A stretch of 64,000 bases of DNA, taken from an uncultured Campylobacter sp. GTDB taxonomy: Bacteria; Campylobacterota; Campylobacteria; Campylobacterales; Campylobacteraceae. This document shows, piece after piece, positions 5,318 through 57,566 of this stretch (within the stretch, counting starts at the first letter, position 1; every line of letters starts with the position of its first letter). The position numbers and the translations under genes were made by a program. Below the pieces are notes generated by a model that saw only the letters and a program-made list of their open reading frames with translations, searched no databases and was not told the origin of the DNA. The DNA lies in contig CAURKZ010000004.1 in the NCBI GenBank assembly GCA_963525605.1, forward strand, positions 95,379 through 159,378, written 5' to 3'.

Positions 5318-5650
5318 TTAGTTTTCATAAGATTCTTTTCTTGCATTTTTTATCTCATCGGATGAGATCTCGTCTATATATTTATCTAGCTTTTTTAAAT
5401 TATCTTTATACGGCTGATCAAGCTTACGACCATTTTTATCTATAGTATACATATGGATGGATACCGCTTCCATTTCATTTAGCTCGCTTGCAAATTTCGT
5501 ATATTCATAAACATCTTTAAATGTAGAATTTCTATATTTGCGATATACCGTCGTTATAAGCGAAATTTCACTTTTAGATATATAATAGGTTGCATCGTAG
5601 TTTATTTCAGAATAGCTACATAAATTATATATAGCGTCTGTGGCAATCAT
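5318..5650 (-). CDS. hypothetical protein (110 aa) in AT-rich island
   Basis: Intact ORF in a visibly AT-rich segment. Overlaps the 3' end of the upstream ankyrin gene by 26 nt. No recognisable motif. Confidence 0.45.
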   Translation of the reverse strand: MIATDAIYNLCSYSEINYDATYYISKSEISLITTVYRKYRNSTFKDVYEYTKFASELNEMEAVSIHMYTIDKNGRKLDQPYKDNLKKLDKYIDEISSDEIKNARKESYEN

Positions 5651-6638
5651 CGTATTTTCGTTTTAGAAATTCCGGGCTCGGTTGTCCGCCTACGTTATAC
5701 TGCATAAGCAGCTTTAAAATCGGTTCGTAATTTGGAGTGCCCGGAAATGTATCATACAATGAAAAATCATATTCGGTAATATCAAATCCGTCCGTCGGTT
5801 CCGCTTTATCATTTAATATTCCCTCGGGCACGACCTTCTTGATATCGTTTCCGTACCTTAGACCCACCGTAGAGTTTTGAAATTTCCAAATATATGGCTT
5901 GTAGCCGCTTTCTAATGCCATCTTTGCTATCTCATACATATTCGTATTCGTAAGATATGAAAAGAAATAATTCGGCTCTCCTATACTAATCATAGGGCAG
6001 TTGGTATCATAAATCAACGTAAAATTTCCATCGTCACTTATTTGCAAAGATTTTATATGGTTATAATTCGGCGGAAGCAGTCTGTTTCTAACGACCTCCG
6101 CCTCTTCAAATTTAACGCCGTTGTCTAAAAGCAGTCTTACCGATTTAGTAGCATTATTTTCTATAGCATAAGCCATAGCGGATAGCTTGTATTCGTCTTT
6201 TTTATGTATATCCGCACCTAGCTTTATAAGCTCTTGGGTAGTATTTGTATCGTCCCAAAAGCTGGAATACATCACGGGCGTTACCCCTCCGTGCATAGTA
6301 TGATCGACGGTTAGATTGTTATCTTTCATAAATTTTAAAATTTCATCAGTTTGCTTGCTTTTTAAAAGCCTTTTTAGCTCTACGTCTATGGCGGGTTCTT
6401 TAAATACGTTTTTTGGATTTGAATTATAATCTATATCCCAATGTCTAAATGCAAAACTTTGCATCTCCGCTTCGCTTACATACTTGTCAAGCCCTGCTTC
6501 TTTAGTAGCATCAGAGCCTATCGTAATAGTGTAGTGAGATTGAGATTTATGAAGTCCTACTCTTCCGCTTATGAATAGATACAAAATAAGGCAAGCAAAA
6601 ACTGCGATAAATTGCAATATAGCTTTTAAATATTTCAA
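5625..6638 (-). CDS. signal-anchored ankyrin-repeat protein
   Basis: 337 aa. N-terminal hydrophobic helix (ILQFIAVFACLILYLFI). Ankyrin-like repeats (GVTPVMYSSFWDDTNTTQELIKLGADIHKKD; LSAMAYAIENNATKSVRLLLDNGVKFE). AT-rich codon usage unlike the flanks. Confidence 0.65.
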   Translation of the reverse strand: MKYLKAILQFIAVFACLILYLFISGRVGLHKSQSHYTITIGSDATKEAGLDKYVSEAEMQSFAFRHWDIDYNSNPKNVFKEPAIDVELKRLLKSKQTDEILKFMKDNNLTVDHTMHGGVTPVMYSSFWDDTNTTQELIKLGADIHKKDEYKLSAMAYAIENNATKSVRLLLDNGVKFEEAEVVRNRLLPPNYNHIKSLQISDDGNFTLIYDTNCPMISIGEPNYFFSYLTNTNMYEIAKMALESGYKPYIWKFQNSTVGLRYGNDIKKVVPEGILNDKAEPTDGFDITEYDFSLYDTFPGTPNYEPILKLLMQYNVGGQPSPEFLKRKYDDCHRRYI

Positions 6639-49617: not shown

Positions 49618-50706
49618 TTAGATAAACAAGTAATCTTTCTTAACGTTATTTATATTTACGCTTTTCCGTAAAAAATATTCTCTAATTTCATCATAAATTT
49701 TTTGATTATAGACGTAAACGAGATAATATCTTGGATAAACGGGTTTGTTCCTAAACCATCTGCCATACGAGGGGCGTGCGATCCTAATAAACGGCAGAGC
49801 CTTAAACCCTTTTAAATTCATATTTATAAACAGATAAAGTATAAAATTTAATAAAAACCCGAATAAATATGTAAAGAATATCGCTATAAAAAATATATTC
49901 CACCATGTTACGCACATAAAAATAGCGATAAAGTACAAAAATATCTTTTCAGATTTTCCTATCTCATATGAACTTGCCAAAATTCCGATAGAGAAATTTA
50001 AAGATAAAGCGTTTTCGTCAATTTCGCAGCGTTTTTCAACCAATCCGTCGCTAATGAATTCTATATAATTGTTTGCAAATTTTATCTCTTGTCTAGGGCG
50101 GATTATGGTAAATACGGATATTATAACCATAGATAGTAAAATAATAAATAAAATAGCAAAATACTGGACCATGTCAATATCTTCATGATTTATAAAATCT
50201 ATAATTAAAAATGCATGTAGCGTAGAAGTCGGCAATAATAGGACTAAAAACGAATATACAAAAAATTTTTCATAATTTTTGATTGCTATCGGATCTTTGT
50301 CATAATCTCTAGCCTTGGAATTTTGCTGCAAAGAGCCGCTGTCATTTGAGATAAAATTTTGCGGCTCCATGCTGTTTTTACAGGCAGAATTCTGATCCGC
50401 TTCGGTTTCTAATTCGGCTTTTAAATTTAAAGCGTCAAGATCGGAATTTATGGTTTCAGAATTTGAAGCTTCGAAATTTGAAAATTTATAATTCAAGAAT
50501 TTAGAATTTGAGACTTCGGAATTCGGGGATTCAAAATTCAGGAATTCAGAATTCGAAGCTTCAAAATTTGAGGCTTCGGAATTTATGGTTTCAGAATTCG
50601 GGGCTTTAAAATTTTCGCCGTTAGAATTTTGTTCCAAGCCCCGCTTCGGCTCTTGATGTCGCTTTTGTAGTGGCTTTTTTAATTCATCTAGCCTGCTTTG
50701 ATCCAT
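49618..50706 (-). CDS. polymorphic membrane-protein family, long member A
   Basis: 362 aa. Conserved N-terminus MDQSRLDELKKPLQKRHQEPKR, pentapeptide N-S/F-E/K repeats, junction QQNSKARDYDKDPIAIK, then 4 TM helices and tail IYDEIREYFLRK. Confidence 0.6.
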   Translation of the reverse strand: MDQSRLDELKKPLQKRHQEPKRGLEQNSNGENFKAPNSETINSEASNFEASNSEFLNFESPNSEVSNSKFLNYKFSNFEASNSETINSDLDALNLKAELETEADQNSACKNSMEPQNFISNDSGSLQQNSKARDYDKDPIAIKNYEKFFVYSFLVLLLPTSTLHAFLIIDFINHEDIDMVQYFAILFIILLSMVIISVFTIIRPRQEIKFANNYIEFISDGLVEKRCEIDENALSLNFSIGILASSYEIGKSEKIFLYFIAIFMCVTWWNIFFIAIFFTYLFGFLLNFILYLFINMNLKGFKALPFIRIARPSYGRWFRNKPVYPRYYLVYVYNQKIYDEIREYFLRKSVNINNVKKDYLFI

Positions 50707-50806: not shown

Positions 50807-51832
50807 TTAGCTCTCATATCTTTGCAGCGATTTTTTATATGTTTTCGCCGCAGCGCAGCCCGTGCTCAGATATACCTCAAACTCCTCGCTAGTAAGCCTG
50901 CGCGGCTCATTCGCAAGCCTCGCCGCGCCCGCTGCACCGCTTGGCGTATTTGCGTCCAGATTCGCTTCATTTACGATCTCACCTCGTCGGATTCGGTTGC
51001 TAAAGCCCGCTGCACGCGCTATTTGCGGCGCACGCCGTAGCGAAAAATTTAAATTTCGCGTTTGCAGATTTAAAATTTTACCCATGCATTTGCGCGGACC
51101 CGCGATAAAATCGCCATTTTGTATAAGCGGGGCGGCGGAGCCGAGCAGGTCGCTCTCTGCCAAGCCGTGCAAGCCGCCTGCCGAGCTGGGTAAGCAGCCC
51201 GTCAAACCCGATAAACCGCCCGCCAAAAGTTCTGCGCCGCTTAGGATACGTAGGCTTCGCACCAAAATCCCGCCGCCGCTTTGAGGGACGCTGCGAAACG
51301 AAATGTCAAAGCCGAAATTGTGAAAAAATATCTCGCCCGCCCGCGACGTGCGCTTGTAGGTGTTGCGATCCGCGCCCGTGAAATACGCCTCGATCTCCGC
51401 GAAGGCGAATTCCGCGCCGCTTACGCAAAGCACATAGTTTTGCAGCAGATCGTGCATGAAATTTTGAATCTTTGCCTGCGCTCGTTCGGCATCAAACTGC
51501 GCCTGCGACGGATGGGCACTTAGCCCTGCCTGCGATGGACGGACGTTAAATTTTAAGTGTGCTTGTTCCGTATCAAGACGCACTTTCTCGGCATCAAACG
51601 GCAGCTCGGTATTAAATTTTAAAATTTCATCTTGCTGCGCGCCGCTAAAATATGGCTGTCCGTCGCAAAATTCCGCGCCACCTTGTGATTTTAAAGGCTT
51701 GTTGCCGCTCCCGTCTCTCGCGCTTCCTGCAAGTTTGGGATTTTTTGAAGCGAGCTTTGAGCCCGCCGAAATTCCAAACTCCGCCGCGTCGATTTTTGAG
51801 AAAAATTTTTCTAAATTTTCATCGCCCAGCAT
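50807..51832 (-). CDS. hypothetical protein with weak resemblance to 3-methyladenine DNA glycosylase (Mpg/AAG fold)
   Basis: 341 aa. The central AEIEAYFTGADRNTYKRTSRAGEIFFHNFGFDISF...GILVRSLRIL...IAGPRKCMGKILNL parallels Mpg blocks (ETEAY..., VLIRA, GPGKL..ALGI). Long N-terminal extension and low-complexity insert. The call is tentative. Confidence 0.4.
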   Translation of the reverse strand: MLGDENLEKFFSKIDAAEFGISAGSKLASKNPKLAGSARDGSGNKPLKSQGGAEFCDGQPYFSGAQQDEILKFNTELPFDAEKVRLDTEQAHLKFNVRPSQAGLSAHPSQAQFDAERAQAKIQNFMHDLLQNYVLCVSGAEFAFAEIEAYFTGADRNTYKRTSRAGEIFFHNFGFDISFRSVPQSGGGILVRSLRILSGAELLAGGLSGLTGCLPSSAGGLHGLAESDLLGSAAPLIQNGDFIAGPRKCMGKILNLQTRNLNFSLRRAPQIARAAGFSNRIRRGEIVNEANLDANTPSGAAGAARLANEPRRLTSEEFEVYLSTGCAAAKTYKKSLQRYES

Positions 51833-52334
51833 TTTGCTCTTCCGTAGAATTTCCTTCGCGCTTTATCGAGCTCGCCTTGTTGCCCATAGTGTCGGATTCG
51901 CCGTTGTTTGCCTCGGCGCGCGTTAAATTTCTCTCGCCGTCTGTTGCGTTCATATCACCTCGCACTAAATTACCGCCGCTACTTGTCGTATTTGTTTCGC
52001 CGCCTTTAAAATTTGGAGCTTCGCAGCGATCTACGCCTAAACGTTCAAAATAATATCTCTCTCGCTCACCTAAGTTTTCCACTCCCCTTTCGCATACACG
52101 CTTGATATACGCCTTGCTAGGGTATCTAAGCCGATTGAGCGCCAATTCACTACCCGCGTCTGCGCGCTTTATCAGCTTAGCGATGCAGGCATCATCCTCT
52201 TCACTATTTGCGATATAATCCCATACGCCACAGTATCTATCACCGCCCAGCGTCGTAATCAAAAAATAAGCCCAAAGCAGGATTATGGCAATCGATATGC
52301 TTCCTTTTATTTTTAAAGATCTCTTTTTTACCAT
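51819..52334 (-). CDS. signal-anchored Cys-motif protein with N-glycosylation-sequon-rich tail, tandem paralog 1
   Basis: 171 aa. TM helix, four conserved Cys, core DDACIAKLIKRADAGSELALNRLRYPSKAYIKRVCERGVENLGERERYYF. The tail holds ETNTT, DMNAT, ERNLT, EGNST. Confidence 0.6.
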   Translation of the reverse strand: MVKKRSLKIKGSISIAIILLWAYFLITTLGGDRYCGVWDYIANSEEDDACIAKLIKRADAGSELALNRLRYPSKAYIKRVCERGVENLGERERYYFERLGVDRCEAPNFKGGETNTTSSGGNLVRGDMNATDGERNLTRAEANNGESDTMGNKASSIKREGNSTEEQNAGR

Positions 52335-52422
52335 GTTTTTCCTTGAGTAATAAATTTTAACTCATTTTTTCACAAATTTGACCAACGACATAAAATTTAC
52401 GATATCGCCCTCAAAGCTAATC

Positions 52423-52962
52423 TTATCGCCCAGCATTTTGCTCTTCCGTAGAATTTCCTTTGCGCTTCGTTTTGTCCGCCTTGCTGCCCACAGTGTCGGA
52501 TTCACCGTTGTTTGCCTCGGCGCGCGTTAAATTTCCGCTATCCGTTGCGTTCGTATCGCCTTGCGCTAAATTACCGCCGCTACTTGTCGTATTTGCTTCG
52601 CCGCCCTTTGATTTGGGCGTTTTAAAGCCCCAAATCTCGCAGCGATCCCCGCTAAAGCCTTGGAAATAATATCTCTCACGCTCGCTCAAGTTTTCTACTC
52701 CCTTTTCGCATGTGCGCTTGATATATGCCTTGCTAGGGTATCTAAGTCGACTGAGCGCCAATTCACTACCCGCGTCTGCGCGTTTTATCAGCTTGGCTAC
52801 ACAGGCATCATCCTCTTCGCCCTTGTTGTTTAAAAAAGATTCCCAAATGTTGCAATACGCGCCACTGTTGTTTATATATAGGGTGCACAGAATAACAACC
52901 CCTACGATTAACAAAAAAATTTGACTTTTACTAGCTTTCAATTTCGCTTTATCGCCCGGCAT
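52423..52962 (-). CDS. signal-anchored Cys-motif protein, tandem paralog 2
   Basis: 179 aa. Same core as paralog 1 (DDACVAKLIKRADAGSELALSRLRYPSKAYIKRTCEKGVENL). The tail holds EANTT, DTNAT. Identical ...NSTEEQNAGR end. Confidence 0.6.
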   Translation of the reverse strand: MPGDKAKLKASKSQIFLLIVGVVILCTLYINNSGAYCNIWESFLNNKGEEDDACVAKLIKRADAGSELALSRLRYPSKAYIKRTCEKGVENLSERERYYFQGFSGDRCEIWGFKTPKSKGGEANTTSSGGNLAQGDTNATDSGNLTRAEANNGESDTVGSKADKTKRKGNSTEEQNAGR

Positions 52963-53455
52963 TTAATCCTCCCGTAGAATTTACATCGCGTTTGATCGCA
53001 CCTGTTTCATTGCGGACTGTATTCGCACCTTCGCGCGTTAAATTTGCTCTGCTATCCGTTGCGTCCGTATCGCCTTGCGCTAAATTACCGCCGCCACTCG
53101 TCGTATTTGCTTCGCCGCCCTTTGATTTGGGCGTTTTAAAGCTCCAAGCGCTACAACGATCTTTACTATAACGCTCGAAATAAAATCTTTCTCGCTCACC
53201 CAAGCTTTCCACTCCCTTTTCGCACACTCGCTTGATATATTCCATAGTTGGGTATCTAAGCCTACTTTCTGCAAAACTATTTCCGTCGTCCGCTCGCTTT
53301 ACCAGCTTGGCGATGCAGGCATCATCTTCCTCATCATGCCTGCCTGAAAAAAATTCTCTCGCGCTACAATACCCGCCGCTACCGCTTACAAACGCGGCAT
53401 AAATAATAATAAGCGCCAAAATTAGCACAAAAACATGACTTTTACCGATTTTCAA
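52949..53455 (-). CDS. signal-anchored Cys-motif protein, tandem paralog 3
   Basis: 168 aa. Core DDACIAKLVKRADDGNSFAESRLRYPTMEYIKRVCEKGVESL. The tail holds EANTT, DVNST. Its 3' end overlaps the paralog 2 start and its 5' end overlaps the SDR stop. Confidence 0.6.
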   Translation of the reverse strand: MKIGKSHVFVLILALIIIYAAFVSGSGGYCSAREFFSGRHDEEDDACIAKLVKRADDGNSFAESRLRYPTMEYIKRVCEKGVESLGERERFYFERYSKDRCSAWSFKTPKSKGGEANTTSGGGNLAQGDTDATDSRANLTREGANTVRNETGAIKRDVNSTGGLNAGR

Positions 53456-54110
53456 GCTCGCCTCCTTCGCGATTAAATTTTGATTTTTTCCGCAGGTTTA
53501 CGATCTGCGGGCGAATCGTAAACTCGCTTACATTGGACTTCGTGCGCAGAATTTGCAGCACAAAATTTGCGATCTCCTCCGCATCCACGAAACTAGCCTC
53601 ATCATCCGCGGGCTCGAAGCTCAAATCCTCGTAAAAGGGCGTTTTGGTGATACCCGGGTTGATGCAGCTTACTCTGATCTGCTTGCGCGCCTCCTCGAAA
53701 AGGCAGAGCAGAAACGCCCGCAGTCCCGCCTTGCTCGCGCTATAAACCGCGCTAAAGCGGCTCGCTCGCAGCGCCTCGATCGAGCTAATGCCGATGATAT
53801 GGGCGCGGTTGCGCTTTAAATTCGGCAAAAGCGCGCGCGCGATGATGATGTTTGCGGCAAGATTTACGTTTAAAATTTTTAAAATTTCGCTCTCGCTCAT
53901 CGCTTCAAGCGGCGCAAATTTCGTCGTACCCGCGCACAAAATCAGCGCGTCAATCTCACACGCCGCAGCCAGCGCGCGACACTCTTTTGCCAGCGCGTCC
54001 AGATCTTCGAAGCGCGAGGCTAGCGTTAAAATTTCATAGCCGTTTTGTCGCAAAAGCTCCGCAACCGCGCTGCCGATACCGCCGTTTGCGCCCGTGATCA
54101 ATGCTTTCAT
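53442..54110 (-). CDS. short-chain dehydrogenase/reductase
   Basis: 222 aa. TGANGGIG cofactor motif and YSASKAG (YxxxK) catalytic motif. Confidence 0.85.
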   Translation of the reverse strand: MKALITGANGGIGSAVAELLRQNGYEILTLASRFEDLDALAKECRALAAACEIDALILCAGTTKFAPLEAMSESEILKILNVNLAANIIIARALLPNLKRNRAHIIGISSIEALRASRFSAVYSASKAGLRAFLLCLFEEARKQIRVSCINPGITKTPFYEDLSFEPADDEASFVDAEEIANFVLQILRTKSNVSEFTIRPQIVNLRKKSKFNREGGELENR

Positions 54111-54474: not shown

Positions 54475-55749
54475 CTAACGCTGCCGTATCTTCGCGAAAT
54501 ACGCCGCCTTCATCGCTTCCTCAAATGCGTCGTTGCTTTCGTACTCGTGCCCCAAGACCTCGCGCCACAGGCTCGCATCCTCCATGCAGAGGTAGAAAAA
54601 CACCCACTCGCGCCACGGCGAAAGCGCGTCTGCGGCAAATTTGAAAAGCTCGCGCTTGATCTGCGGCGGGTAGGACAGCTTGCCGTTCGCGTCCGCAAGG
54701 GGCATCTGCAGAATTTTGCTCCGCAGCCCGCGCGAGCGCAGCTTCTTGACGACGGGCTTGATGAAAGTAAGCGTGCCGAGCGAGACCATCGCGACGCCGC
54801 TTGGATCGAAGCTGCGTAGCAGCCGCTCAAAAAGCGCGCCGTAATCGTTTTGCCACCCCTCGTACCAAACCATCGGGTGGAAGTGAAAGCCCACTAAAAT
54901 GCCGTGAGCCGCGAGCGCTTCTGCCGCCGCCAGCCGCGCATCCAAGCTCGCGCTTAGATGCTCCTCGTTCGCTATGATCGCGGGCGTATTTAGCGAAAAG
55001 GTGACGATGAGATTGCGCGGGATCTCGCGCTGCAGGAAAAACTTAATATTGTTCGACTTGCTTTTAAGCTCCAAAATCACGTTTTGATGCCGCGCCGCGA
55101 AGTCCGTTAGCGCGCTTAAAATGCCGAAGCGATCGCCCCACATGAGCGAGTCGGAGCTCTGCCCCGTGCCGATGTGATAGCTGCGCGCGGAATCGAGCCG
55201 CAGGCGCGCTAAATTTGCCGCAAAATTCTCGTCAAAGCCGATTTTCCCGTGCTTGTAAAAGGAGCCGATCGCGCAATAGGAGCAGTCAAAGCCGCACGAA
55301 TTAACGGCATCGAGCGTCAGCAGATTGCAGCAGCGCGTGTTTTCGCTCGCCACCGGACAGCGGCCTAAAGCGATGCGGTCCGCGCGAAAGGAGGAAATTT
55401 CAAATTTTTTTGGCGCGTAATCGCTTTTGAAGCCTGCGTACGAGTGCGGGCGCGACTTTAGCTCAAGCCAAGCCTCGCGCACGAAATTAAAAATTTTCTC
55501 GCCGCTTGGAACTTTCCCCGTTTTATTAAATTTGGCTTTATTAAAATTTAGCCCGCACTGCTCGCTTGCAAGCAGCTCATAAACGGGCGTCTCGTCCCAC
55601 GCCTCAAAATCGCTCGCAAACTCCGCTAGCTGCTTTCGTTGCTGAAATGAAAAGTGAAATTTCTCAAATAGCGCGTCCAAAAACGCGCTTGATCGCTCGC
55701 TCAGATTCACGCCAAACTGCGCGCCTAGCTCCTTTTTTGCCTCCGTCAT
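54475..55749 (-). CDS. radical SAM protein, spore-photoproduct-lyase (SPL)-like family
   Basis: 424 aa. CGFDCSYC (CxxxCxxC) cluster. HIGTGQSSDSL and FHFHPMV blocks resemble SPL-family proteins. ~130-aa N-terminal extension. Confidence 0.65.
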   Translation of the reverse strand: MTEAKKELGAQFGVNLSERSSAFLDALFEKFHFSFQQRKQLAEFASDFEAWDETPVYELLASEQCGLNFNKAKFNKTGKVPSGEKIFNFVREAWLELKSRPHSYAGFKSDYAPKKFEISSFRADRIALGRCPVASENTRCCNLLTLDAVNSCGFDCSYCAIGSFYKHGKIGFDENFAANLARLRLDSARSYHIGTGQSSDSLMWGDRFGILSALTDFAARHQNVILELKSKSNNIKFFLQREIPRNLIVTFSLNTPAIIANEEHLSASLDARLAAAEALAAHGILVGFHFHPMVWYEGWQNDYGALFERLLRSFDPSGVAMVSLGTLTFIKPVVKKLRSRGLRSKILQMPLADANGKLSYPPQIKRELFKFAADALSPWREWVFFYLCMEDASLWREVLGHEYESNDAFEEAMKAAYFAKIRQR

Positions 55750-56405: not shown

Positions 56406-57566
56406 TTAAATTTTGCCTTTTATTGCGGCGCGGATTTGCGGCAGACGCGCCTTTATGAGCTCATAGACGAAGCGTTTGCAAAGCCGCTCGCCGCCCAAAT
56501 GATCGCTTGCGATCTTCATCATCGCCCACGGCACGCCCGCGCGCTCGCAAGCACTAACAAAAATCGCGCTCTCCATATCGTAAAGCCTGACGCCGCGATT
56601 TGTGCGCCCGCAGGTAGCGTCCTTTGCCGTGCACGGCGTATTTTGCGCTGCTCGTGCTGCGGTATTCGTCGCAGCGCTGCACTCACCTACCGCGATTTGT
56701 GAGGGTTTTGCGCTCGCTAAATTTTGCGCCGCGGCCTGCGTCGCGCTTTGTGTCGCAACCCGCGTCGCGCCTTGCGTGAAATTTTTTGTATCTGCCGCGC
56801 CGCTCATCCCTTGCGTTGTGGCTTGTGCGTTTATCTCGCCGCACGCCTCGATCGCTGCGATATTTGCTGCGCTCGCCTGCTCCGCTGCGTTTAAAATTTT
56901 AGGCTTGTTTACGCAGATCAAATTTGCCCGCAGCTTACCGTCCAAACTCGCGCCGCAAAATTCCCGCTCGCAAACGTTTTGAAATTTTAGAGCCTGCTCG
57001 CTGTGTTCCCCAACCTGCGAGCGATAAAATTTCGATCCGTCCTCGCCGCAAAATTCCTGCGCTGCCGTGCCGTCAAAGTAAAAGGCCTCGCCGATTTGCA
57101 CGCTTGTATCCTCACAGCCGCAGATGCCTATGTTTAGCGCAAAGTCCACGTGCCGCGAAAGTAAAATTTCACCAAAGCGCTCTGAATTCTGCGCGGAGTT
57201 AAAATTTAAAATTTCAAAATTTTCAGTCGCATTTAGCGCGAAGCCAGTTTCTACATCGCCGCCGCAGAGCGCGCCCGCGTCCGAAGAATGCTTAAATTTT
57301 GCGTCCGCGCCGCGTTGGTTCTCGCGAAGCTCGCGCCCGAATTCTACGTCTGTATCGGCACGGCGAATAAATTCCGCGCCGGATTCGCTCTTAAATTCTA
57401 TTTCTATGTCGCCTGCAGCACCCGTTTTAAATTTAGCCCCAAACCTCACGCCGCAGATGTATAGAAGCATCTGCTCGCCTGCGAACAGATCGCCGCTGCG
57501 AGTAAGTTTAAAACTCTCGATCATCGCTTGGGCTTCGCAGCGCAAAGCCGTGCAGATTAGTATCAT
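56406..57566 (-). CDS. PNP_UDP_1-type nucleosidase-like protein (MTAN/futalosine-hydrolase-like) split by large low-complexity insertions
   Basis: ATG at 57566 after a GAAGGGG SD. N-terminal MILICTALRCEAQAMIESF, internal LNIGICG, and C-terminal LYDMESAIFVSACERAGVPWAMMKIASDHLG match the family blocks. The rest is Ala/Gln/Thr- or KF/EF-rich filler. Confidence 0.55.
   Translation of the reverse strand: MILICTALRCEAQAMIESFKLTRSGDLFAGEQMLLYICGVRFGAKFKTGAAGDIEIEFKSESGAEFIRRADTDVEFGRELRENQRGADAKFKHSSDAGALCGGDVETGFALNATENFEILNFNSAQNSERFGEILLSRHVDFALNIGICGCEDTSVQIGEAFYFDGTAAQEFCGEDGSKFYRSQVGEHSEQALKFQNVCEREFCGASLDGKLRANLICVNKPKILNAAEQASAANIAAIEACGEINAQATTQGMSGAADTKNFTQGATRVATQSATQAAAQNLASAKPSQIAVGECSAATNTAARAAQNTPCTAKDATCGRTNRGVRLYDMESAIFVSACERAGVPWAMMKIASDHLGGERLCKRFVYELIKARLPQIRAAIKGKI

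Follow-up and report, generated by a model that had tools for sequence, protein, structure and literature searches.

A clade-restricted family of small Campylobacter proteins whose sequon-rich C-terminal tails are candidate multi-site PglB substrates

We analyzed a window of 64,000 nucleotides (nt) from an uncultured Campylobacter sp. resembling C. gracilis, in which three consecutive open reading frames (ORFs) on the minus strand, at 51819-53455, encode paralogous proteins that we number p1, p2 and p3 by rising coordinate (order of transcription p3, p2, p1). We consider it probable that these proteins belong to a clade-restricted family of small, helical, Sec-exported disulfide proteins whose disordered C-terminal tails are multi-site substrates of the N-glycosylating enzyme PglB. 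On this reading, an N-terminal signal peptide or signal anchor would direct export or insertion by the Sec pathway, placing in the periplasm an all-helical core of ~75 residues, probably braced by two disulfides formed from four invariant cysteines. Behind the core, a disordered Gly/Asn/Thr/Ser/Glu tail of ~65 residues would present four ancestral acceptor sites (E-x-N-T-T, D-x-N-A-T, E-x-N-L-T and E/D-x-N-S-T), each of which PglB would load with the N-glycan of the species, yielding a small folded domain that trails a glycan-decorated tail. The core would most likely act as a binding module, and the glycans may protect and hydrate the exposed tail. Judged from sequence, this is plausibly a newly seen, unannotated and lineage-restricted family within a well-known class, the Campylobacter N-glycoproteins.

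A first-pass annotation of this DNA had described three tandem paralogs of 168-179 amino acids (aa) here, and the ORFs are indeed present:

52949-53455, minus strand: p3, 168 aa, TTG start, with a Shine-Dalgarno sequence AGGAGG at 53461-53466 and the TTG 5 nt later
52423-52962, minus strand: p2, 179 aa, its ATG lying within the codons that end p3 (...LNAGR and stop), with GGAGGA 4 nt upstream
51819-52334, minus strand: p1, 171 aa, with its own AAGGA Shine-Dalgarno sequence and ATG

The ATG of p1 lies 88 nt downstream of p2, and a gene call in the complete Campylobacter gracilis genome CP085963.1 starts at the same TTG as p3. The three proteins are 57-67% identical in pairwise comparison and share one layout: a hydrophobic anchor or signal at the N-terminus leads into a helical core that contains four Cys, and a tail predicted to be disordered follows. 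The motifs EEDDAC, A.KL.KRAD.G, RLRYP, YIKR.C, ERER.YF and DRC are invariant among them.

The sequon D/E-X-N-X-S/T and the chemistry by which PglB modifies it are textbook knowledge for Campylobacter. Searching for this extended sequon (X not Pro), we recovered exactly the eight tail matches that the earlier annotation had listed and found none in the hydrophobic segments or the cores; the tails also hold some plain N-X-S/T sites:

52952-53152, minus strand: p3 tail, residues 102-168, with extended sequons EANTT and DVNST and plain sites NLT and NET
52426-52638, minus strand: p2 tail, residues 109-179, with extended sequons EANTT and DTNAT and plain sites NLT and NST
51822-52022, minus strand: p1 tail, residues 105-171, with extended sequons ETNTT, DMNAT, ERNLT and EGNST

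This density is not a product of tail composition. Where 8 sequons are observed, composition-preserving shuffles yield 0.16-0.30 per tail and 0.70 over all three tails, and none of 50,000 shuffles reaches 8; the p1 tail alone carries 4 where 0.30 are expected (P=1e-4). Likewise, the 57 other non-overlapping ORFs of the window contain 8 sequons in 16,786 aa, so that the tails are 82-fold denser, and the enrichment that the annotation had proposed to check is thus borne out on both comparisons. Because the paralogs share ancestry, the independent count is nearer to four ancestral sites than to eight. The sole other sequon-rich ORF in the window, at 5625-6464 on the minus strand, encodes a 279-aa ankyrin protein (Pfam Ank_2, E=1.9e-7) with DNNLT, DTNTT, ENNAT and DGNFT; its ATG-started translation shows no obvious signal peptide.

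The sequons are also maintained across the family. The 60 related loci supplied 126 members with complete tails, 122 of the tails being distinct. Three of these members have one extended sequon in the tail, 22 have two, 47 have three and 54 have four; thus 101 of the 126 full-length members (80%) keep 3-4 tail sequons despite indels between the sites, and in none of them does a sequon fall in the transmembrane (TM) segment or core. After realignment, the tail consensus reads ...KSKGG-[E-A-N-T-T]-SGGGNLARG-[D-T-N-A-T]-DG-[E-G-N-L-T]-RAEANNGESDT....IKR-[E-G-N-S-T]-EEQNAGR, with the four sites in brackets, and these sites hold a complete sequon in 105, 93, 87 and 103 of the 122 tails, respectively. 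We computed class entropy with D=E and S=T, taking positions -2, 0 and +2 of each site as sequon columns. The twelve sequon columns have a mean entropy of 0.31, compared with 0.93 for the other tail columns, a value equalled by random 12-column sets in 4e-5 of trials; the -1 columns are the most variable, with an entropy of 1.29. The -1 position of the sequon is not read by PglB. Conserved -2, 0 and +2 positions around a free -1 position are therefore the signature expected if the sites are used.

For the enzyme that would act on these tails, we draw on published work at the level of the lineage. All Campylobacter genomes carry a pgl locus (PMC6025236). C. gracilis has two PglB homologues; in a set of 15 enzymes, PglB1 ranked with the most active on the acceptor DQNAT, and the five enzymes that accepted AQNAT did not include it (PMC4894442). 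A cell-free assay likewise shows that C. gracilis PglB can transfer glycans, the C. jejuni heptasaccharide among them (PMC11164674). Because PglB1 is active on DQNAT and is not listed for AQNAT, the conserved acidic residue at -2 in the family matches the demonstrated substrate of the lineage's own enzyme. Our literature search found no C. gracilis glycoproteome.

Several observations weigh against this reading of the tails. Two of the three window paralogs keep just two full sequons. The +1 positions are conserved as well, as are tail residues outside the sequons (NL in GGNLAR; N43, T49 and K58 of the tail alignment), so that the sequons do not wholly explain the constraint on the tail; the terminal QNAGR is under a further constraint, because the next gene's start overlaps it. 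Further, all members are fairly close relatives, and their conservation therefore stems partly from shared ancestry and gene conversion. A six-frame search of the 64-kb window for WWD[YWF]G turned up no pglB; the choice between signal peptide and anchor, like the final location, was judged from hydropathy and charge alone; and glycosylation of the tail sequons is itself something that we infer from sequence.

These points lend some weight to an account that we regard as unlikely: that the proteins are exported, Cys-rich and helical, that the tail is a low-complexity linker, and that its sequons persist through common descent and gene conversion while being glycosylated marginally or not at all. 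The tails are indeed biased in composition (N, G, T, S, E) and fast-evolving, with a ratio of nonsynonymous to synonymous substitution (dN/dS) of 0.5-0.63; they are homogenized mosaically between paralogs in blocks of 85-88% nt identity; they conserve residues unconnected with sequons; and in p2 and p3 alike two acidic -2 residues or an Asn have disappeared. However, shuffled tails of unchanged composition average 0.3 sequons where p1 has four, positions -2, 0 and +2 are held while -1 is free, and 80% of members retain 3-4 complete sequons across intervening indels. The activity of PglB1 on DQNAT, whose -2 residue is acidic, and its absence from the enzymes that accept AQNAT (PMC4894442) point the same way. 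None of the in silico tests able to refute the glycoprotein reading did so.

Selection acts very differently on the core. Within paralog types, dN/dS is 0.06-0.12 for the core, compared with 0.5-0.63 for the tail and 0.12-0.15 for flanking housekeeping genes; the core is under strong purifying selection, and most of its positions are invariant. This near-invariance and low dN/dS establish that the genes are real and that the core has a conserved function of its own. The first-pass annotation had called the proteins dedicated, heavily N-glycosylated envelope proteins; the enrichment and conservation of the sequons and the predicted disorder of the tails agree with the second part of that description, but "dedicated" overreaches, given what the core reveals.

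The family is an orphan. A word-indexed search of 5.8 billion proteins returned 922 relatives, and the best 120 of these are either unnamed or "hypothetical protein, uncultured Campylobacter sp."; the name "dihydropteroate synthetase", which IMG gives to one relative, is clearly an error. When the family profile was run against 1.84 billion cluster representatives, it matched only 9 clusters, each made up of this family or its fragments, and it is these own-family clusters and unnamed relatives that define its orphan status. None of p1, p2 and p3 matches a model in Pfam, NCBIfam, PADLOC or PHROGs, and looking up the exact sequence of p1 returned no record. The family has no Pfam or NCBIfam model and no structural neighbor, in keeping with the annotation, to which no described family with this layout was known.

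Among species-representative genomes we found 60 loci, all in metagenome-assembled genomes (MAGs) of uncultured Campylobacter apart from one C. gracilis MAG, and the complete C. gracilis genome CP085963.1 carries two copies, with 4 and 3 sequons. The family is thus confined to C. gracilis and close uncultured relatives. Every locus occupies one syntenic site, made up of UvrA, PNP-like, 159-aa, spore-photoproduct-lyase-like radical-SAM and short-chain dehydrogenase (SDR) genes, the array, and then 341-aa and 362-aa genes. Across loci the SDR and radical-SAM proteins are 92-97% identical, compared with 45-97% for family members, and copy number ranges from 1 to 4 per genome. A survey of distribution and copy number, as the annotation had suggested, thus reveals a single, clade-restricted syntenic locus whose copy number varies between genomes.

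Members sort into about four paralog types whose order is constant, and the window has the commonest arrangement (15 loci). Members are mosaic: the proximal part of the p2 tail is 88% nt-identical to p3 and the distal part 87% to p1, and alternative cassettes, such as AGSELALNRLRYPSKAY versus AGDDHAVNRLMYPSQAY, have been recombined with differing flanks. The tandem paralogs are consistent with the proposed amplification by tandem duplication, but the long-standing set of types, their constant order, the 1-4 copies and the mosaic recombination show that this amplification is not recent. Within paralog types, synonymous divergence (dS) is 0.5-0.9 in the core, against ~0.2 in flanking genes and 0.2-0.36 in the tails, which suggests that the cores are old allelic cassettes shuffled by recombination and that gene conversion homogenizes the tails.

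This pattern raises a rather improbable alternative, in which the locus is a variable envelope cassette whose diversity is the main point, its products being, for example, periplasmic immunity-type proteins against a toxin, or targets or decoys for phage or host factors, and in which glycosylation is incidental or secondary. Tandem paralogs of about four types in fixed order, present in 1-4 copies per genome, are what such a cassette would look like, as are members pieced together from alternative cassettes and a core dS that suggests old alleles or recombination. The two downstream genes are also unusually variable, with identities of 77-89% for the 341-aa gene and 27-87% for the 362-aa gene in comparison with 93-97% for the flanks. 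By contrast, we found no toxin, secretion-system, defense or phage family in the neighborhood, which is one of housekeeping genes (UvrA, RF2, PGI, nucleotidyl transferase), and a core that is mostly invariant under strong purifying selection is unlike typical diversifying immunity proteins.

A bolder form of the glycoprotein reading, which we offer as speculation and think doubtful, would make the glycan array the primary selected trait. Oral Campylobacter would then have in this family a mucin-like "glycan display" module peculiar to the lineage: a conserved binding domain with disulfide bonds would hold a tail bearing several N-glycans in the envelope, and recombination of cassettes among the 1-4 tandem paralogs would tune the amount of glycan shown and its variant, and so shape interactions with host lectins or antibodies, proteases or phage.

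Whether the tails reach PglB depends on topology. The TM or signal anchor assigned to each paralog by the annotation is evident in the hydropathy profiles, which contain one 19-residue hydrophobic window per protein (mean Kyte-Doolittle 2.05-2.62) near the N-terminus, behind a K/R-rich stretch, and no second hydrophobic segment:

53378-53434, minus strand: p3 hydrophobic segment, residues 8-26, mean Kyte-Doolittle 2.62, preceded by the n-region MKIGKSH and followed by SGSGG
52870-52926, minus strand: p2 hydrophobic segment, residues 13-31, mean Kyte-Doolittle 2.15, with 4 K/R ahead of it and an AlphaFold2 helix at 12-32
52242-52298, minus strand: p1 hydrophobic segment, residues 13-31, mean Kyte-Doolittle 2.05, with 5 K/R and no D/E ahead of it

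The sequence after the segment is acidic. Together with the K/R-rich n-region, this predicts, by the positive-inside rule, that the N-terminus lies inside and the C-terminus outside. Because small-residue stretches (SGSGG, NNSGA, LGG) follow the segment, it could equally well be a Sec signal peptide that is cleaved off or an anchor that is not. The four core Cys reported in the annotation are invariant in all three paralogs and are invariant or 99% kept in 137 family members, at spacings of 17, 31 and 23, and their conservation fits an oxidizing compartment such as the periplasm. In 88% of members Tyr directly precedes the first Cys (...SGAYC, ...GGYC, ...DRYC); because of this Tyr at -1 there is no lipobox [LVI][ASTVI][GAS]C, and we rejected a bacterial lipoprotein.

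An AlphaFold2 model built with a 35-sequence alignment has a mean pLDDT (predicted local distance difference test score) of 59 over the full protein. In this model, residues 12-32 form a TM helix, residues 39-111 fold into a helical core (pLDDT ~80-87), and the tail, at residues 120-179, has no secondary structure and a pLDDT of 27-34; the tails are predicted to be disordered. Modeled separately, the core has a pLDDT of 74 and six short helices. Foldseek searches of the PDB with the full and core models gave no match below E=1. The annotation had seen in the core a Sel1-like helix pair, a label that no hidden Markov model (HMM) or fold search supports: there is no Pfam match to Sel1 (PF08238) or tetratricopeptide (TPR) models for p1, p2 or p3 at E<=1, or for 35 members at E<=10, and the Sel1-like repeat/TPR fold is absent from the Foldseek PDB matches of both models. 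We likewise rejected region 2 of an extracytoplasmic function (ECF) sigma factor (9isn_F), whose HMM match has E=0.1 and whose Foldseek matches have E=2.6-6.6 (TM-score ~0.13-0.23), with no Pfam sigma70_r2 match; we regard it as a chance resemblance of helical hairpins. A reading of the proteins as regulators that are tethered to the membrane and face the cytoplasm, with a helical motif like that of sigma factors and an unmodified cytoplasmic tail, is very improbable: 9isn_F is the sole PDB match of the family profile and a top Foldseek match, shares with the family the pattern A..G(D/S)..A...L.Y.P..I, and is joined by weak matches of two members to Pfam HTH_16, but the 9isn_F matches are not significant, the charges around the TM segment favor a C-terminus outside, four invariant Cys and a sequon-rich tail suit the periplasm, and there is no DNA-binding region.

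The three genes form one operon-like run with overlapping stops and starts. The same 14-nt stop/start overlap occurs at the junctions SDR gene/p3, p3/p2 and p1/341-aa gene; where a paralog ends, ...NAGR and its stop lie over ATG-CCG/CTG-GGC-GAT, and at the last of these junctions the ...QNAGR end of p1 overlaps the ATG of the 341-aa gene. The annotation was right to include this overlap in the unit of duplication, with the qualification that the overlapping MLGD start after p2 gives a remnant only. The junction features and the adjoining genes are as follows:

52362-52436, minus strand: remnant ORF of 24 codons (MLGDKISFEGDIVNFMSLVKFVKK and stop) in the p2-p1 spacer, opening at the conserved overlapping ATG (MLGD...)
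53442-54110, minus strand: SDR gene upstream of p3, 93-97% identical in all 60 loci, its stop overlapping the p3 start by 14 nt
50807-51832, minus strand: 341-aa hypothetical gene downstream of p1 and in translational overlap with it, found in the same clade only

The remnant ORF looks like a duplication-junction relic, and most related loci share the 62-nt gap between stop and ORF. On the minus strand, the end of the SDR gene at 53442-53480 (...NREGGELENR and stop) resembles the end of the p1 tail at 51819-51860 (...KREGNSTEEQNAGR and stop) in DNA, the two having in common cgcgaagga...aaaat...gg..taa and the same 14-nt overlap; we noted this likeness by eye, and the repeat search did not report it. 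It suggests that the leftmost duplication junction lies within the 3' end of the SDR gene. We found no terminator-like site between the SDR gene and the paralogs, the promoter/terminator scan being otherwise uninformative, and the SDR gene is probably cotranscribed with them.

Searches of Pfam, NCBIfam and the PDB yielded no match for the 341-aa protein, whose homologues are all clade-restricted hypotheticals. Its N-terminal third is of low complexity, and its C-terminal half (AEIEAYF..., GGILVRSL) is, by eye, faintly like motifs of 3-methyladenine DNA glycosylase, a likeness that no search confirmed. Beyond it, at 49618-50706 on the minus strand, a 362-aa multi-TM hypothetical protein is encoded by the most variable gene of the locus, duplicated or replaced in some loci; a 15-nt (or 45-nt) tandem repeat at 50444-50614 gives it N-terminal pentapeptides (SNFEA/SNSEF/LNFES...). 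Upstream of the SDR gene, also on the minus strand, lie genes for a radical-SAM protein of the spore-photoproduct-lyase family (54475-55749; PF20903, E=2.6e-11) and a PNP_UDP_1-like protein that is 71-85% identical between genomes (56406-57566); these adjoin uvrA, which is on the opposite strand.

What makes the family notable is the density of its sites and how cleanly the sequon shows in its evolution; it entails no new mechanism. If the sites are used, with 3-4 glycans per ~65 residues, these proteins would be among the most densely N-glycosylated natural bacterial polypeptides and would belong to an oral, opportunistic Campylobacter that has been little studied. They could then serve as marker substrates for the in vivo activity of the two C. 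gracilis PglB enzymes, and as a natural compact glycan carrier comparable to the Cj1433c GlycoTag of glycoconjugate vaccine work. A disordered tail that otherwise evolves fast but whose sequons selection apparently maintains also offers a case for the study of how glycosylation sites evolve.

More than 100 N-glycoproteins have been mapped in C. jejuni. Known Campylobacter PglB substrates such as CmeA/AcrA and PEB3 are Sec-exported, as is predicted here, and likewise carry D/E-X-N-X-S/T in flexible, exposed segments; the family differs in having no sequence or fold relationship to any described substrate and in packing 3-4 candidate sites into one disordered C-terminal tail of ~65 residues. Among such substrates, the C. 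jejuni Cj1433c GlycoTag is likewise a natural Campylobacter segment dense in PglB sequons: it is an array of nine perfect KIDLNNT repeats that, on export in E. coli equipped with pgl, can receive as many as nine glycans (PMC4879521). The GlycoTag, however, is a perfect short tandem repeat at the N-terminal end of an unrelated protein, whereas the family tails hold four distinct sites at conserved positions, with unequal sequence and spacing, C-terminal to a conserved folded core. Tandem Repeats Finder reported no short-period tandem repeat at 51819-53455, and the tails are thus unlike the GlycoTag type. Like the Helicobacter cysteine-rich (Hcp) proteins and other Sel1-like proteins of Epsilonproteobacteria, family members are small, predicted to be secreted, helical and probably disulfide-bonded, and they share a loose A..G...A...L..Y motif, but their Cys spacing is not that of a repeated unit. 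Finally, the tandem paralogs, predicted signal sequences, copy-number variation and recombination recall the periplasmic immunity arrays of polymorphic toxin and type VI secretion system loci; here, by contrast, cognate toxin and secretion genes are absent from the vicinity, and the core is conserved rather than diversifying.

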